Positions 110-4,236 of a DNA stretch of 4,236 bases are shown here, piece after piece (position 1 is the stretch's first letter; each line of letters starts with the position of its first letter). Origin of the DNA: Escherichia coli (lineage in GTDB: Bacteria; Pseudomonadota; Gammaproteobacteria; Enterobacterales; Enterobacteriaceae); the NCBI RefSeq assembly GCF_024298765.1, contig NZ_CP101215.1. The stretch is one strand, 5' to 3'. Made by a program: the position numbers and the translations under genes. Below the pieces are notes generated by a model. The model saw nothing but the letters and a program-made list of their open reading frames with translations, searched no databases and was not told the origin of the DNA.

Positions 110-2329
110 TCACATACTCATGCCCCGGTAATGTCCGGGGCGTCGTTGTTGTTGCCTGTGCTGTTCGTCCCGCTTCCATTCATGCCAGGTCTGATTAAAT
201 CCGAGTTGACGGAAGAGATAATCCGGCATCTCTTCCGGTTTGTTGATGGCAGCAAAAAGCGTGTCCTGACAGCCCTTAAGCCTGAACTGCATCAGCTTCG
301 GTTCCGGTGGGTACGGAGTATCAGCATCACGGTTTATGGCCTCACCGTAACCTGCCAGGTGTATCCCGTTCTCTGTGATGATGCTTACCATCAGATGACT
401 GTAATCCGGCGACGGAAGCGCAAGAACGGGACGCAGCTCGTCCTCCAGGCGCACAAAACCGACAAGCATTTCCTCCGGCCCTTCGCACAACAGCAGATTC
501 AGCGTCCTGCTGTTTCGCTCTGTCGAAAAGACAACGGGCATGAGTTGCTCCGGTGCCGCATAAGCGGTGACGTCCACCCGGTGCGCTGACGGCAGCGGAG
601 AGGCTGCGGGCCTGCGGTCGTCGCTGAAATAAAAATTATCCGGCCAGTGATGCGGCAGCGCCGGAAAACCGTAAGAGGGCCACCCCTGGCGCATCTGTTC
701 CAGTACATGCCGGACCGTCGCACCGGAATACATTCTCACACGCTCAGGCCGCGCCATCGTCTCATGAGATTCTGGCATTCCCTCACGTATATCCGAGACC
801 ATCACAGCCCCGCCTGGCGACAGGTAAACATTCACCGGGTCATGAACACTCTGGGGGTAATGCGCCAGCTCATCACCCCATACCGTGAATTCTCCGGCTC
901 TGTTACTCAGCATCATGTAGCGGGTTATCCTGCCCGTTCCCGGCTCTCTGGCACGCCCCAGCTCCGTAATAACCCCGGCTAATGCCGTTTCTCGGCTCAG
1001 GCGATGGTTATCATGGTGTTTCAGCCGTGCGTCATATTCCTGTTCCTTCCGGCGCGCTTCCGCTTCGGCTTCCTCCCTGCGCCGCTCCGCTTCCCGTGCT
1101 GACAGTTTTTCTTTCAGCTCTGCCATTCCCGGCGAAATCCACGTATTCCACTGCGTTTCAAAGGCCTGACGACGGACGGGAATGTCCCGTTCTTTCACGG
1201 CCCTGTAGGTGCGGAGAAGAGATTCAATCTGTTTCTCGAGTTTCCAGAAGCGGAGTTGTCTTTTGCGGTATTCCGGTTCAGCCCATGTCATCAGGGGAAG
1301 CTCTGACAGGATGGACGCTACCGGACGGGCTTTTCTGAGTCCGGTCATCTCTTTTTCGAGAATATCCCGCTCTTTCACCAGCGCATTCCCCTCACGTTTG
1401 ATGTCGTTTGCCTTCCCGTTCATCGCCACGAACTCCGGTGTCATCTCCCATGCGTTCCCGCATTCCTGCGGCAGTGTGGCAATGAATTCCCGCAGGGTAT
1501 CCGCTGAGGCATTCGCGGCGGGAATGGTCAGATTAAGGGCTTCCGCTGCACGACGTGCGGCATCGCTGAGTTCCCGTTTCCGCACGTTCTCCTGTACCTG
1601 GATGACTGCCAGCCTTGTGCGGGAAACCTGTATTTCCAGGTTAAGGCTGTTAATCAGGCGGTTCTGCTCACCGCGTTCTGTTTCCATGCCCCGTTTTTCC
1701 ATCGCACAGGCAGCCTTTCCGAGGTGAAGGCCCGGCGCTTTCTCCAGTCCCTGACGCTCGTATGAACGATGGTCTATCTCTTCCTGGTAGCCGGCGTTCG
1801 CAAGCGCTCTGTTCGCATGGTCAGCCCATGATGCGCGCCACGTCTCGGCGAGTGCCCGGTCGTTCCAGTCCCTGACCTTTCCTGCGAATCCCGTTTCCCC
1901 GACAGCTCTCGTGGTCAGCATGATGTGTGCATGGGGGTTGGTCCGGTCCATATGATGGAACGCCACATCGGCAATCATGCCCCGACTGACAAAGTTTTCC
2001 CGGACAAAAGCGAGAACGGCCTCCCGTGCGGCCTCGCGGGAAATCTCACGGGGAATGGCGAGTTCAATCTCCCTTGCCAGCTGGGAGTTCCGGCGCTGTT
2101 CGGCTTTCTCGACCGCATTCCAGAGAACGGAACGGTCACCACACCAGGACGGTGCATTCGCAGGGGTGAGAATGACCGCATCATCAACGCCGCGTTTACG
2201 GGTGTAATCGTGGATTAATCCGGTACGGTCATCGGGTATGACAGAGCCGGAACGGTAGGCAGCAGAAGCAACGGCACTGTAGCCGTTTTTTCGCGAAATG
2301 ATTTTCATGCTGAGATGATAAATCGCCAT
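110..2329 (-). CDS. mobA: MobA/MobL-family (MOBQ-type) conjugative relaxase with a long C-terminal extension of unknown function, about 739 aa
   Basis: A continuous 768-codon minus-strand ORF (110..2416) in the supplied track. I place the start at the internal Met (ATG at 2329-2327) because the protein then begins MAIYHLSMKIISRKNGYSAVASAAYRSGS, the conserved N-terminus of MobA/MobL relaxases (compare RSF1010 MobA, MAIYHL...), with the catalytic Tyr region near the N-terminus and a 3-His metal motif HHMDRTNPHAHIML. A WADHANRAL motif and a charged, coiled-coil-like middle section (REAERRREEAEAEARRKEQEYD) follow. The C-terminal roughly 260 residues (about 110..890) have no motif I can assign. 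Stop TGA at 110-112. Established knowledge: the MobA_MobL family signature. Inference: start codon choice. Confidence 0.9.
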   Translation of the reverse strand: MAIYHLSMKIISRKNGYSAVASAAYRSGSVIPDDRTGLIHDYTRKRGVDDAVILTPANAPSWCGDRSVLWNAVEKAEQRRNSQLAREIELAIPREISREAAREAVLAFVRENFVSRGMIADVAFHHMDRTNPHAHIMLTTRAVGETGFAGKVRDWNDRALAETWRASWADHANRALANAGYQEEIDHRSYERQGLEKAPGLHLGKAACAMEKRGMETERGEQNRLINSLNLEIQVSRTRLAVIQVQENVRKRELSDAARRAAEALNLTIPAANASADTLREFIATLPQECGNAWEMTPEFVAMNGKANDIKREGNALVKERDILEKEMTGLRKARPVASILSELPLMTWAEPEYRKRQLRFWKLEKQIESLLRTYRAVKERDIPVRRQAFETQWNTWISPGMAELKEKLSAREAERRREEAEAEARRKEQEYDARLKHHDNHRLSRETALAGVITELGRAREPGTGRITRYMMLSNRAGEFTVWGDELAHYPQSVHDPVNVYLSPGGAVMVSDIREGMPESHETMARPERVRMYSGATVRHVLEQMRQGWPSYGFPALPHHWPDNFYFSDDRRPAASPLPSAHRVDVTAYAAPEQLMPVVFSTERNSRTLNLLLCEGPEEMLVGFVRLEDELRPVLALPSPDYSHLMVSIITENGIHLAGYGEAINRDADTPYPPEPKLMQFRLKGCQDTLFAAINKPEEMPDYLFRQLGFNQTWHEWKRDEQHRQQQRRPGHYRGMSM

Positions 2330-2377
2330 TTCTGCCGTAATGCCTTTTTGCCGTTTTCTTTCAGCCCCGCAGGGCGC

Positions 2378-2425
2378 ACACAATCGAAACGAAGTGAAGA
2401 TTGTATAAGTGCGCACTTCGTGATA
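2378..2425. other. Candidate origin of transfer (oriT) with MOBQ-type nick motif, overlapping the divergent mobA/mobC promoter region
   Basis: Seen in sequence: inverted repeat ACAATC (2380-2385) and GATTGT (2399-2404) with a 13-bp spacer, followed one base later by TAAGTGCG|CAC (2406-2416). This matches the RSF1010/R1162 oriT nick core GTAAGTGCG|CCCT, which I recall from memory. A second inverted repeat, acgaagtg (2389-2396) and cacttcgt (2414-2421), brackets the putative nick. The position between divergent mobA and mobC is the canonical MOBQ arrangement. The strand and exact nick position (predicted between 2413 and 2414) are inferred. Confidence 0.55.
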
Positions 2426-2449
2426 TGCCGTGCATTATGCCAGCTCAGT

Positions 2450-2477
2450 TTTTAAACTACCAGTGACGAGCTAAAAT
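2450..2477 (+). promoter_or_regulatory. Putative mobC promoter (-35 TTTAAA, -10 TAAAAT)
   Basis: Seen in sequence: TAAAAT at 2472-2477 with TTTAAA at 2450-2455 (16-bp spacer), about 30 nt upstream of the mobC ATG at 2508; AGGAG Shine-Dalgarno at 2495-2499. By-eye hexamer match only. Confidence 0.25.
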
Positions 2478-2507
2478 GCGATTTTTCACCGCGCAAGGAG
2501 TCACGAA

Positions 2508-2783
2508 ATGAGCAGAACACTCGAACAGAAGATTGCTGAAGCTGAGGCCAGATTGCAGCGCCTGAAGGCGAAGAGCCGGAGCCTGGACACTGCGCAAAAA
2601 GTCATTGTGGGAGCAGCCATGCTGGCGAGGGTACGGAGGCCGGAAGAGGCGCAACTGCGTGCGTTCCTGCTCCAGTTCCTGCGAAAGGAAGTCACAAGAC
2701 AGGCCGATGTGAACCGGCTACAACCACTGATTAACGAGCTGGAGAAGCTACCAAGACCACCTGCGAAACCGCAGAACGGATAA
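2508..2783 (+). CDS. mobC: MobC-family relaxosome accessory protein (91 aa)
   Basis: ORF 2508..2783 with a good RBS (AGGAG 2495-2499). The protein is small and basic, and it contains QKVIVGAAMLARV, which resembles the conserved RKVLVGAMILAKV segment of RSF1010-type MobC (recalled from memory). It is divergent from mobA with the oriT-like sequence in between, as in MOBQ systems. Confidence 0.8.
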   Translation: MSRTLEQKIAEAEARLQRLKAKSRSLDTAQKVIVGAAMLARVRRPEEAQLRAFLLQFLRKEVTRQADVNRLQPLINELEKLPRPPAKPQNG

Positions 2784-2952
2784 GCCCCGGCGCGTAAGTG
2801 CCACATGCACCACCGGACGCCTTTGCGCTTCCTCGCACATTCGCTCGCTACGCTCGGTCATGAGGCTGCGGCGAGCGCTACCACCGCAATCACGAGGAAA
2901 CCAGCGCCATTGCTGGGCGGAACCGGAAAAACCGCAGGAACGCCAACAGCTC

Positions 2953-2974
2953 AAAAAAGCGCCGAAAAGGCGCT
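2953..2974 (-). terminator. Putative rep terminator hairpin (short stem plus T6 on the minus strand)
   Basis: Seen in sequence: plus 2958-2974 forms a-gcgcc-gaaaa-ggcgc-t, a 5 to 6 bp GC stem with a 5-nt loop. On the minus strand it is followed by TTTTTTGAG (plus 2951-2958). It lies 15-35 nt downstream of the rep stop codon (2989-2991). The stem is short, and the element overlaps the presumed origin. Confidence 0.35.
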
Positions 2975-2995
2975 GTTATCTGATAAGGCTATTTG
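2953..2995 (-). other. ColE2-type origin of replication (Rep-primed ori) immediately 3' of rep
   Basis: The minus strand reads CAAATAGCCTTATCAGATAACAGCGCCTTTTCGGCGCTTTTTTGAGC, starting in the last codons of rep. From memory, the ColE2-P9 minimal origin contains AGATAAGCCTTATCAGATAACAGCGCC just downstream of rep; the exact base-by-base match is not verified here. Placement directly after the rep stop fits the known ColE2 architecture. Confidence 0.6.
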
Positions 2996-3897
2996 TGCAT
3001 TGCCCAATTACGGATCGTATTTCGATGTACATCCAGCATCGCCGCAATAGCTTTCTGAGAATATCCATTCTCCAGCATACATAGCGCCATGAAACGCTTG
3101 TCCTCGTAGGCTTCGCCTTTAGCAAGGCCACCTTTCCGGCCTCGAGCGGCCTGTACAGCGGAAAAGCCTTCCGGTGAGAATTTTCTGTGCGTGTATTTCG
3201 CAATGCTCTTGCCAATAGCCCGGCATTCAGCCAGTGAAAGAGGAACGGGAAGCGATGCGTTGTACATTTCGACACGCTGGATCACGGCATCAAGCCACTG
3301 TGAGAATGCTGGCCATCCCTGACGAATCGCTCTGTAAGCCCATTTGCGCGTCATTTCGAACAGGTGGCAGTTTCGCCCCATCCCGTAATGTTTATCGATG
3401 CTACGACGCTCTGAGGCGCTCAAATCGAGATAATCTGCCAGTTCATCGAGGGTATAGGCTTCCTCGCGCCACTCCATCACCTGCCATTCCAGGTGGAACG
3501 GATTTTTGCAAATCAGTCCGCTGTAGTTCACATCAGCACAAAGTTTCTCACACAGCGAACGTTCAATCGCGGCAGCATATTTCAGCGCCTTAACCGACGC
3601 ATCAGGCGCGGTTCTCACGGCGATATTGAGTGCATAGAGCAGGTGAGCGTGTCCGTTCACAGGATTTTTAACGGTGATGTTCGGCGCGGGGGCGTTCCGG
3701 TCGCTCCAGTCAATCGCTGCCCCCTCGCGGTCAACGTCAAAAACCAGCCAGAACTGCGCATGAGGCTGGTTCTGCTGGATGTACCGCGCAAGAAGCGCAC
3801 GCCCTTTGCCGGAGATGCGAAGGCCGAAAGCGAGATCATCCGTGTGATAGGGACGGTGGGGTAAATTTTCTTCGAAGTATTGAAGCGCGGCGCTCAT
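2989..3897 (-). CDS. rep: ColE2-family plasmid replication initiator / plasmid-specific primase Rep (302 aa)
   Basis: ORF 2989..3897 (-). RBS GGAAGGAA about 10 nt upstream of the ATG at 3897-3895; stop TAG at 2989-2991. The protein has long stretches I recognise from ColE2-P9/ColE3 Rep: YIQQNQPHA, DWSDRNAPAPNITVKNPVNGHAHLLYAL, VRTAPDAS, YAAAIERSLCEKLCADVNYSGLICKNP, YTLDELADYLDLSA, LFEMTRKWAYRAIRQGWPAFSQWLDAVIQRVEMYNASLPVPLS, ECRAIGKSIAKYTHRKFSPEGFSAVQAARGRKGG. The C-terminal tail (…ENGYSQKAIAAMLDVHRNTIRNWAMHK) looks like a helix-turn-helix, consistent with origin binding. Confidence 0.92.
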   Translation of the reverse strand: MSAALQYFEENLPHRPYHTDDLAFGLRISGKGRALLARYIQQNQPHAQFWLVFDVDREGAAIDWSDRNAPAPNITVKNPVNGHAHLLYALNIAVRTAPDASVKALKYAAAIERSLCEKLCADVNYSGLICKNPFHLEWQVMEWREEAYTLDELADYLDLSASERRSIDKHYGMGRNCHLFEMTRKWAYRAIRQGWPAFSQWLDAVIQRVEMYNASLPVPLSLAECRAIGKSIAKYTHRKFSPEGFSAVQAARGRKGGLAKGEAYEDKRFMALCMLENGYSQKAIAAMLDVHRNTIRNWAMHK

Positions 3898-3996
3898 GTG
3901 TTACGATTCCTTCCAGGTTATCGACCGACATCGCCCCTGTATTTTCGTGACAGTCTTGCCGGATAGGCACGAATTTCAGGGGCGTTTGTTTTTTCT
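3880..3996 (+). ncRNA. Putative antisense RNA (ColE2 RNA I-like) complementary to the rep mRNA leader and start region
   Basis: Established knowledge: ColE2-type replicons control Rep translation with an antisense RNA of about 115 nt (RNA I) complementary to the rep 5' leader. Seen in sequence: a strong plus-strand terminator (stem 3932-3939 with 3977-3984, then TTTGTTTTTTCT) ends at 3996 inside the rep leader. The 5' end is inferred from the expected length; no convincing promoter was identified by eye. Confidence 0.35.
3932..3996 (+). terminator. Rho-independent terminator (hairpin plus T-run) on the plus strand within the rep leader region
   Basis: Seen in sequence: CGCCCCTG (3932-3939) pairs with CAGGGGCG (3977-3984), a perfect 8-bp GC-rich stem around a 37-nt loop that may fold further. 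It is followed immediately by TTTGTTTTTTCT (3985-3996). Confidence 0.5.
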
Positions 3997-4054
3997 GGCG
4001 CTTACCCTACACCCAAACGCCAAACCCTGTCGATCCTTCCCCAAAACCCGATCC

Positions 4055-4082
4055 ATTTACCATAACTCCCGTTGTACGTACC
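4055..4082 (-). other. Xer (XerC/XerD) site-specific recombination core site, cer/psi-like with 6-bp spacer
   Basis: The minus strand reads GGTACGTACAA-CGGGAG-TTATGGTAAAT. Compared with the ColE1 cer core as I recall it (GGTGCGTACAA-TTAAGGGA-TTATGGTAAAT), the XerD arm is identical and the XerC arm differs at one position. The central region is 6 bp, as in dif and psi, rather than the 8 bp of cer. Confidence 0.6.
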
Positions 4083-4236
4083 CTCTAAAACGCTCTCAGA
4101 CGCGTTCTGACGCAAAAAACGCAAAAAGACAAGGAAACACCAGGCTGAACCAGAAAAATGCGTCAGAATCGTTTTTAGGGCGCTGCATAACTATGCACGA
4201 AAGCGATGCGCGATCGGTTTCGACCGTTCAGAAGCG
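4083..4236 (-). promoter_or_regulatory. Putative Xer accessory sequences (cer-like), including an ARG-box-like palindrome; truncated by the window edge
   Basis: Established knowledge: cer-type sites need about 180 bp of accessory sequence on the XerC-arm side, with an ArgR box about 100 bp from the core. Seen in sequence: palindrome TGCATAACTATGCA at 4184-4197, about 105 bp from the XerC arm, matching TGnAT-N4-ATnCA of the ARG-box consensus at 8 of 10 core positions. Also a 10-bp inverted repeat, TTCTGACGCA (4105-4114) and TGCGTCAGAA (4159-4168), flanking an A-rich stretch. Confidence 0.4.

Follow-up and report, generated by a model that had tools for sequence, protein, structure and literature searches.

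A probable primosome assembly site of the ColE1 ssiA family beside the ColE2-type origin of a small Col156/MOBQ4 plasmid

Introduction

The ssiA element of ColE1 lies downstream of the replication origin. Extension by DNA polymerase I (Pol I) unwinds the DNA there and exposes this n'-pas (PMC3167613, PMC3640518). Once exposed, it recruits PriA, and then DnaB and DnaG for the synthesis of the lagging strand (PMC3167613, PMC3640518). The element is kept in constructs that share the pBR322 origin together with 419 nt downstream of it (PMC3167613). In primosome assembly of the phiX174 type, PriA recognizes a hairpin in single-stranded DNA coated with SSB (PMC5778457).

In plasmids of the ColE2 type, Rep is a primase. 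Pol I extends its short primer, and replication is described or cited as unidirectional (PMC4538821). The ColE2 origin has 32 bp and is located downstream of rep (PMC6856555). The primer sequence of this type is AGA (PMC5304414).

We analysed a stretch of 4,236 nt (the window), and more precisely the spacer that separates its mobC-like gene from a ColE2-type origin. This spacer probably holds a primosome assembly site of the phiX174 type (n'-pas) that belongs to the ColE1 ssiA family. It occupies positions 2789-2884 and would be active as single-stranded DNA of the minus strand. The grounds are homology, the geometry of strand and distance, and structural covariation.

Results

Plasmid context

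The spacer is 100% identical to E. coli plasmid p6_020022 (NZ_CP032885.1, 4,234 bp; Col156, MOBQ typing). The window is essentially an entire small plasmid, a Col156/MOBQ4-type relative distinct from ColE2-P9 itself. Its main genes are the following:

About 110-2326, minus strand: MobA_MobL relaxase (Pfam)
2508-2783, plus strand: gene of 91 amino acids at the mobC position of MOBQ4 plasmids, without a Pfam match
2989-3897, minus strand: Rep, with the Pfam domains Replicase and PriCT_1 and a C-terminal helix-turn-helix (Pfam)

MOBQ4 plasmids carry mobC at the position that corresponds to the gene at 2508-2783 (PMC6856555). The spacer under study comprises the 169 nt from the mobC stop codon to the terminator (2784-2952). 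The earlier note had placed it between mobC and the origin, and this gene context was right, with a Pfam-supported Rep, a MobA_MobL relaxase and an origin of the ColE2 type. It had also seen no credible open reading frame here, which holds. Three mechanical reading frames of 68-81 amino acids overlap the spacer, a Pfam search of the three matched no family, and the flanks diverge in related plasmids.

Other parts of the plasmid deserve mention. Many Col156 Rep proteins align with this one over residues 1-246 only, at about 97%. The C-terminal 55 residues or so (the helix-turn-helix; window 2989-3150) are swapped among Col156 lineages, along with small differences in the origin. At 3862-3985 on the minus strand there is a sub-threshold Rfam match to PK-repBA (28.8 bits against a gathering score of 45 bits, E 0.0018). 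It spans the start of rep and its leader, the site of antisense RNA control in ColE2 plasmids. Finally, a cer-like Xer recombination site, GGTACGTACAA-CGGGAG-TTATGGTAAAT, is present at 4055-4082 (minus strand). Against the arms of ColE1 cer, the left arm agrees at 10 of 11 positions and the right arm at 11 of 11. We looked for such a multimer resolution site (cer type), defined by XerC and XerD arms around a centre of 6-8 nt, in the spacer as well and rejected it: the arms GGTGCGTACAA ... TTATGGTAAAT stand outside, at 4055-4082 (minus strand). These MOBQ4 plasmids are described as carrying a cer-like site (PMC6856555).

The spacer belongs to a plasmid-borne family

The features that define the family are all on the minus strand:

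2789-2884, minus strand: whole assembly site (limits of the nhmmer alignment to the family profile)
2866-2876, minus strand: 5' block GCTCGCCGCAG, invariant in 12 sequences
2827-2836, minus strand: 3' block GCGAGGAAGC, invariant in 12 sequences
2792-2798, minus strand: CTTACGC motif, about 30 nt after the core

Positions 2792-2881 of the window align with positions 1395-1306 of ColE1 (NC_001371) with 78% identity over 90 nt (E 2e-16). A sensitive BLAST search of the 169 nt against 72,556 plasmids showed that at least 5,000 plasmid records match the core. Among the plasmid matches listed, the common core corresponds to window 2820-2879 with about 85% identity. The matching records include small plasmids of the ColE1 type and large IncF plasmids of Klebsiella, Salmonella and Enterobacter, and 703 of the best 5,000 matches are non-mobilizable plasmids.

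We aligned 12 copies from ColE2-type, ColE1-type and IncFIA/FIB plasmids. GCTCGCCGCAG, ACCGA and GCGAGGAAGC are invariant among them, and CTTACGC is near-invariant; this motif or a close variant (CTGACGC, GTACGC) is present in most real homologues. The homology to other plasmids stops at CTTACGC, and the ColE2-type relatives diverge just past it. The two bases that follow GCGAGGAAGC vary by lineage (GG, GC, AC and others), being GC here and GG in ColE1. The hexamer AAGCGG is typical of n'-pas sites. The window has AAGCGC, its Col156 relatives AAGCAC and the ColE1-type plasmids AAGCGG; AAGC is invariant and the last two bases vary.

A pattern scan with the two flanking blocks through 100,044 species genomes returned 120 stretches. 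We then discarded duplicates and chance matches rich in GC, which left 87 distinct sequences and, among them, 48 different inner segments; the invariance of the flanking blocks in this set is imposed by the search pattern. The copies of pUC and pBR322 type found by the scan carry the same core. A profile of the 87 members matches the window from 2884 to 2789 on the minus strand (E 3.4e-22). The same profile gave no second copy, equivalent to ssiB, anywhere in the window.

The element is not in every plasmid of this replicon type. A family search found no member within 1.2 kb of rep in four distant ColE2-type plasmids (L007-L010), which are an Edwardsiella plasmid (pEI2-like) and Col(Ye4449) plasmids of Klebsiella, Kluyvera and E. 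coli with more distant Reps. Therefore, the element is not universally required for ColE2-type replication. In one further plasmid (L004), the sequence downstream of rep is truncated. We regard the assembly site as an accessory module that is widespread without being a constant component of the replicon.

Some database matches call for care. Twelve matches came from a phage collection, mostly to very short or unannotated records, and seemed to carry little information. One of them is a record labelled phiX174 (Z35638.1, 3,164 bp), which may be partial or a construct with plasmid sequence; the phiX174 genome is about 5.4 kb, far longer than this record. Likewise, small contigs in assemblies of Streptomyces, Cutibacterium, Mycolicibacter, Streptococcus, Paracoccus and several metagenome-assembled genomes (L018, L022, L023, L027, L028, L043, L047 and others) carry cores identical to enterobacterial copies of ColE1/pUC, p15A or F type. 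These identical cores in non-enterobacterial assemblies look like contamination by cloning vectors or plasmids.

The site would lie on the displaced strand, at a fixed distance from the origin

The elements from which the geometry is read are these:

About 2969-3000, minus strand: ColE2-type origin ccttatcagataacagcgcc, directly after rep and invariant in relatives
2983 to 2981, minus strand: primer triplet AGA, within the ColE2-type origin
2952-2974, minus strand: intrinsic-terminator-like hairpin AGCGCC-TTTTC-GGCGCT followed by TTTTTT (terminator scan 2974 to 2958, with T tail)

The terminator-like hairpin and its T run, just 3' of rep and the origin, are largely kept in the ColE2-type relatives. 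Within the window origin, AGA is present on the minus strand alone. Consequently, the leading strand should have minus-strand polarity and grow to lower coordinates, into the spacer. The displaced strand would then be the parental minus strand. We infer this direction of ColE2 replication from the primer sequence.

By eye, GGTTTTTCCGGTTCC of the window resembles CCTTTTTACGGTTCC of the pMB1 origin at 12 of 15 positions. BLAST against ColE1 did not recover this likeness, and we treated it as chance or shared composition.

In the window, GCTCGCCGCAG starts 105 nt from the AGA of the primer start. The distance from AGA to the assembly site is 104-105 nt in all five ColE2-type plasmids compared (the window, L003, L005, L006 and L011), and it is kept in L006 despite a strongly diverged intervening sequence. 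In ColE1, the 5' motif of RNA II occupies 654-672 of the plus strand, and the origin region is at about 1196-1205. The ColE1 element starts at 1311, on the same strand as RNA II and about 115 nt past the origin, a figure that assumes about 555 nt from the start of RNA II to the origin. The strand of the window that aligns with the displaced (plus) strand of ColE1 is the minus strand. With the direction inferred from the primer, the assembly site is, as in ColE1, on the strand that the new leading strand displaces. Thus, the element keeps its strand relative to the fork, and nearly its distance, in two origin types that are unrelated.

This geometry bears on a reading in which the site serves mainly conjugation, where it would prime, in the recipient, the strand complementary to the transferred one, instead of initiating the lagging strand in vegetative replication. 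The plasmid is mobilizable, with a MobA_MobL relaxase and MOBQ typing, and single-strand initiation sites are reportedly also discussed for incoming conjugative DNA (PMC7690428, PMC11541004). However, the plus strand carries an RSF1010-like nick-region core, TAAGTGCGC, at 2406-2414, in the gap between the relaxase and mobC genes, which are divergent, and the site is on the minus strand. An origin of transfer is expected between these two genes (PMC6856555). The spacing of 104-105 nt and the orientation are fixed relative to the vegetative origin, with an orientation identical to that in ColE1, and the element is also present in the 703 non-mobilizable plasmids among the best 5,000 matches. In RSF1010, the strand bearing the nick core is the one nicked and transferred. 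If the plus strand, with TAAGTGCGC, is the one transferred here, the minus-strand site is absent from the transferred DNA. We consider a mainly conjugative role improbable.

The interval between origin and site

The interval contains the repeats to which the earlier note had drawn attention:

2885-2951: interval of 67 nt between the origin/terminator and the assembly site, with four GGAAnCC units at 2896-2944

The units are where they had been placed: GGAAACC at 2896-2902, GGAACC at 2919-2924, GGAAAAACC at 2925-2933 and GGAACGCC at 2937-2944. Written as GGAA-N0-3-CC, the pattern occurs four times in 49 nt. Four occurrences per 50 nt were reached in none of 2,000 dinucleotide-preserving shuffles of the whole window, and shuffling the segment locally gave 0.18 on average. 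The cluster is thus unusual, although the pattern itself was chosen post hoc, after inspection of the sequence.

Could these units be iteron-like auxiliary sites, bound by Rep or a host protein and modulating the firing of the origin? The four units within 49 nt adjoin the origin, with a density seen in 0 of 2,000 shuffles. Nevertheless, the motif was defined post hoc. The units are 6-9 bp long, heterogeneous and irregularly spaced (23, 6 and 12 nt). Four ColE2-type relatives have 1, 1, 1 and 0 units against the 4 here, at non-equivalent positions, although they share the same origin core. As iterons we would accept three or more similar direct repeats that are constant in length and spacing and shared by plasmids with the same Rep and origin. 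The spacer does not show this, and no family of direct repeats was found in 2885-2951. Moreover, the literature gives the ColE2 origin as 32 bp (PMC6856555). Such auxiliary sites are quite unlikely, and we conclude that the GGAAnCC units are neither iterons nor Rep sites. The suggestion that they serve Rep or a host factor is not borne out by conservation (0-1 units in four relatives against 4). That ColE2 origins are not known to need iterons, as the earlier note remarked, agrees with the lack of a repeat family in 2885-2951.

Other properties of the interval are shared. The displaced strand is poor in A: it has 4-7 in 54-55 nt in each of the five ColE2-type plasmids and 9 in 86 nt in ColE1. 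GCAATGG (2908-2914 on the minus strand; CCATTGC on the plus strand) is invariant in the five ColE2-type plasmids amid a variable spacer, and so is GGTGGT (2879-2884). Conservation among ColE2-like plasmids, which the earlier note had set as a check of the spacer, is divided: in the five plasmids compared, the assembly site, the length of the interval, the A-poor strand and GCAATGG/GGTGGT are conserved, and the GGAAnCC units are not. Most likely, these units are a lineage-specific product of a purine-rich, T-poor spacer that Pol I copies first.

The interval of 105 nt from primer start to assembly site may itself be a functional 'run-up' for Pol I, with selection perhaps acting on its exact length and on the A-poor displaced strand. 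This idea is speculative and we hold it to be doubtful. If true, the run-up could keep the displaced strand unstructured, or could set the point of handover from the Pol I D-loop to the PriA primosome. The GGAAnCC pattern would then be one sequence solution to this constraint.

Compensatory changes in an imperfect hairpin

Between the invariant blocks, the minus strand can form the following structure:

2837-2865, minus strand: 29-nt imperfect hairpin (covariation in 30 distinct 29-nt variants)
2860-2864 and 2836-2840, minus strand: outer stem, positions 2-6 with 26-30
2852-2856 and 2844-2848, minus strand: inner stem with tandem G·A pairs, positions 10-14 with 18-22
2849-2851, minus strand: GTA triloop, inside the mini-hairpin GCGTAGC
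2847-2853, minus strand: mini-hairpin GCGTAGC (GC-GNA-GC cap), within the hairpin

We counted base pairs in the 30 distinct 29-nt variants. Pair 5-27 is A-T 19 times, G-C 9 times and G-T twice. At pair 6-26, 13 variants have T-A and 15 have C-G, and at pair 13-19, 26 have G-C and 4 have A-T. With permuted partners, the pairing observed at these three pairs was reached in 0 of 5,000 cases. Pairs 3-29 and 4-28 switch between tandem G·A/A·G, as in the ColE1 type, and Watson-Crick pairs. The inner stem consists of C-G, tandem G·A/A·G, G-C or A-T, and C-G; its tandem pair is replaced by G-C/G-C in 3 of the 30 variants. The triloop is GNA in 22 of 30. Shorter variants have a hairpin of wholly unrelated sequence that is nonetheless paired, for example CTTTGAC/GTCAAAG or CTGCG/CGCAG.

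The independent alignment of 12 sequences agrees with these counts. Nine of its cells are changed on both sides, a number that none of 500 shuffles reached, and pairing amounts to 70.8%, against 11-58% with slid partners. Taken from sequence comparison, these compensatory changes support an imperfect hairpin with a GC-GNA-GC mini-hairpin cap and tandem G·A pairs. On the other hand, folding energy does not distinguish the site. Folded as DNA, the spacer is no better than its shuffles (z -0.45 for the minus strand and -0.79 for the other), and the hairpin alone has a mean z of +0.5 over 48 variants. Non-significant values are expected because the nearest-neighbour parameters give no credit to GNA triloops or to sheared or tandem G·A pairs. 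For the 87 sequences, RNAalifold proposed a pairing of the invariant flanks. We set it aside, as a pairing that covariation cannot test.

The earlier note had also described a 7-bp inverted repeat, CGCTCGC at 2842-2848 and GCGAGCG at 2871-2877, and its coordinates are correct. Since 36% of shuffled segments also contain a perfect inverted repeat of 7 bp, it is not significant alone. On the minus strand, C plus GCTCGC of the 5' block pairs with hairpin positions 18-24 (GCGAGCG), and there are three copies of CGAG(C/G)G, each able to pair with the 5' block. The inverted repeat (2842-2877) is a piece of the assembly site and one of several alternative pairings. Covariation has no hold on it because the 5' block never varies.

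Covariation alone cannot separate a DNA structure from an RNA structure. The hairpin could therefore act as RNA, either as a small RNA or within the mobC or rep transcripts, as their 3' end or terminator. Read-through from rep would transcribe the minus strand, and in ColE1 there is read-through of RNA II. Several results speak against this. A scan of 2300-4236 gave no promoter-like site, and no Rfam family reached its threshold in the spacer, where the best was sX9 (21.8 bits against a gathering score of 44 bits, E 0.77); the small RNA that had been offered as an option has no support on these two points. On the minus strand, the strong terminator-like hairpin 2974-2952 stands upstream of the element. 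The transcriptional contexts of the element are unrelated: next to rop in ColE1-type plasmids, between repE and parA in those of IncF type, and after mobC or traD here. Furthermore, the homologous ColE1 DNA is described as a signal in single-stranded DNA (PMC3167613). We judge an RNA role very unlikely.

Least probable of all, and scarcely credible, is that the spacer is neutral filler whose similarity comes from recent recombination between plasmids and not from selection: recombination of plasmid modules is common, the homology breaks off abruptly just past CTTACGC and distant ColE2-type plasmids lack the element, but the invariant blocks are kept across three replicon families while their flanks diverge, the stems are preserved by compensatory substitutions, and strand and distance to the origin are kept in two unrelated origin types.

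Discussion

Proposed mechanism

We favour a primosome assembly site that would work as follows. The Rep primase would lay a short AGA primer at the origin, with minus-strand polarity (2983 to 2981). Pol I would extend it to lower coordinates and displace the parental minus strand. Some 105-195 nt later, the site would be exposed on the displaced strand and would fold into the imperfect hairpin between GCTCGCCGCAG and GCGAGGAAGC. PriA would recognize the folded site, and PriB, DnaT and DnaC-DnaB would be recruited, followed by DnaG. Finally, DnaB would travel 5' to 3' with the fork, and DnaG would prime the lagging strand. The dependence on PriA and the order of events are carried over by analogy from the ColE1 and ColE2 literature.

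Among the functions first offered for the spacer, the host-factor site was essentially right, as an ssiA-type site at 2789-2884 on the minus strand, although not for its GGAAnCC part. That the spacer might do nothing is excluded by its conservation across three replicon families.

Significance

The feature is ordinary: a known kind of element, in the place expected downstream of a Pol I-dependent origin. It leaves the current understanding of plasmid replication unchanged. Its value is mainly one of annotation. An element of about 95 nt, present in at least 5,000 plasmid records, accounts for a conserved spacer that looks 'empty'. In the plasmid records inspected, no feature of such a kind is annotated under the match, and the feature tables hold almost only protein-coding genes. 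For Col156/MOBQ4 plasmids, the site would also tell in which direction replication runs and which strand is the lagging-strand template. In addition, it suggests that origins primed by Rep (ColE2 type) and by RNA (ColE1 type) share one downstream module, placed at the same distance. Finally, the covariation makes it possible to describe the site independently of sequence, as a variable stem between invariant flanks, with tandem G·A pairs and a mini-hairpin capped by GNA, and this description could seed a search model.

Comparison with known systems

The GGAAnCC units call to mind the iterons of Rep_3-type plasmids such as pIGWZ12, a sister MOBQ4 replicon, which are likewise short repeats next to an origin. 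Iterons measure about 17-22 bp and are regularly spaced and conserved in relatives. In contrast, the units of the window have 6-9 bp, are irregular and are not conserved. The iterons of pIGWZ12 and pIGRK have been described (PMC6856555, PMC6854812).

With the primosome assembly site of phiX174, the window site would share its mode of action; we found and claim no sequence homology between them. Closer in sequence are the F-type plasmids. A primosome assembly site near ori2 of mini-F was reportedly found by Imber, Low and Ray in 1983. Similarly, IncFIA and IncFIB plasmids carry members of the family beside repE, with the same invariant blocks. A Klebsiella IncFIA/FII plasmid (L015, NZ_CP103501.1) has two of them, inverted and flanking repE, at 2347-2443 (plus strand) and 4066-3971 (minus strand). 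The polarity of these copies suits outward priming of leading strands, unlike the lagging-strand geometry of the window.

For ColE2 itself, ssi elements have reportedly been described, together with those of F, R6K and R100, by Nomura et al. 1991 (Gene 108:15-22; cited in PMC6856555 and PMC6854812). Like the proposed window site, the ColE2 element is reportedly a single-strand initiation sequence, so a priming signal in this replicon type is established. In pIGRK, deletion of ssi is reported to reduce fitness or change copy number (PMC6854812).

The closest relative is the ssiA (n'-pas) of ColE1 and pBR322, for which rriA and L-strand factor Y effector site are older names. In pBR322, a DnaA box lies between the origin and ssiA; reading the spacer by eye, we saw none between the window origin and the site. 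The two systems differ in the origin, which is a Rep-primase origin of the ColE2 type in the window and an RNA II/RNase H origin in ColE1. They also differ in the outer stem, CTCAT/ATGTG with one T·T mismatch in the window and CGAAC/GTGAG with tandem G·A pairs in ColE1, and in the bases after the core, GC and GG, respectively. Both have the same invariant blocks and the same hairpin architecture, with 78% identity over 90 nt. In both, the site is on the displaced strand, the template of the lagging strand, about 105-115 nt downstream of a unidirectional origin that depends on Pol I.
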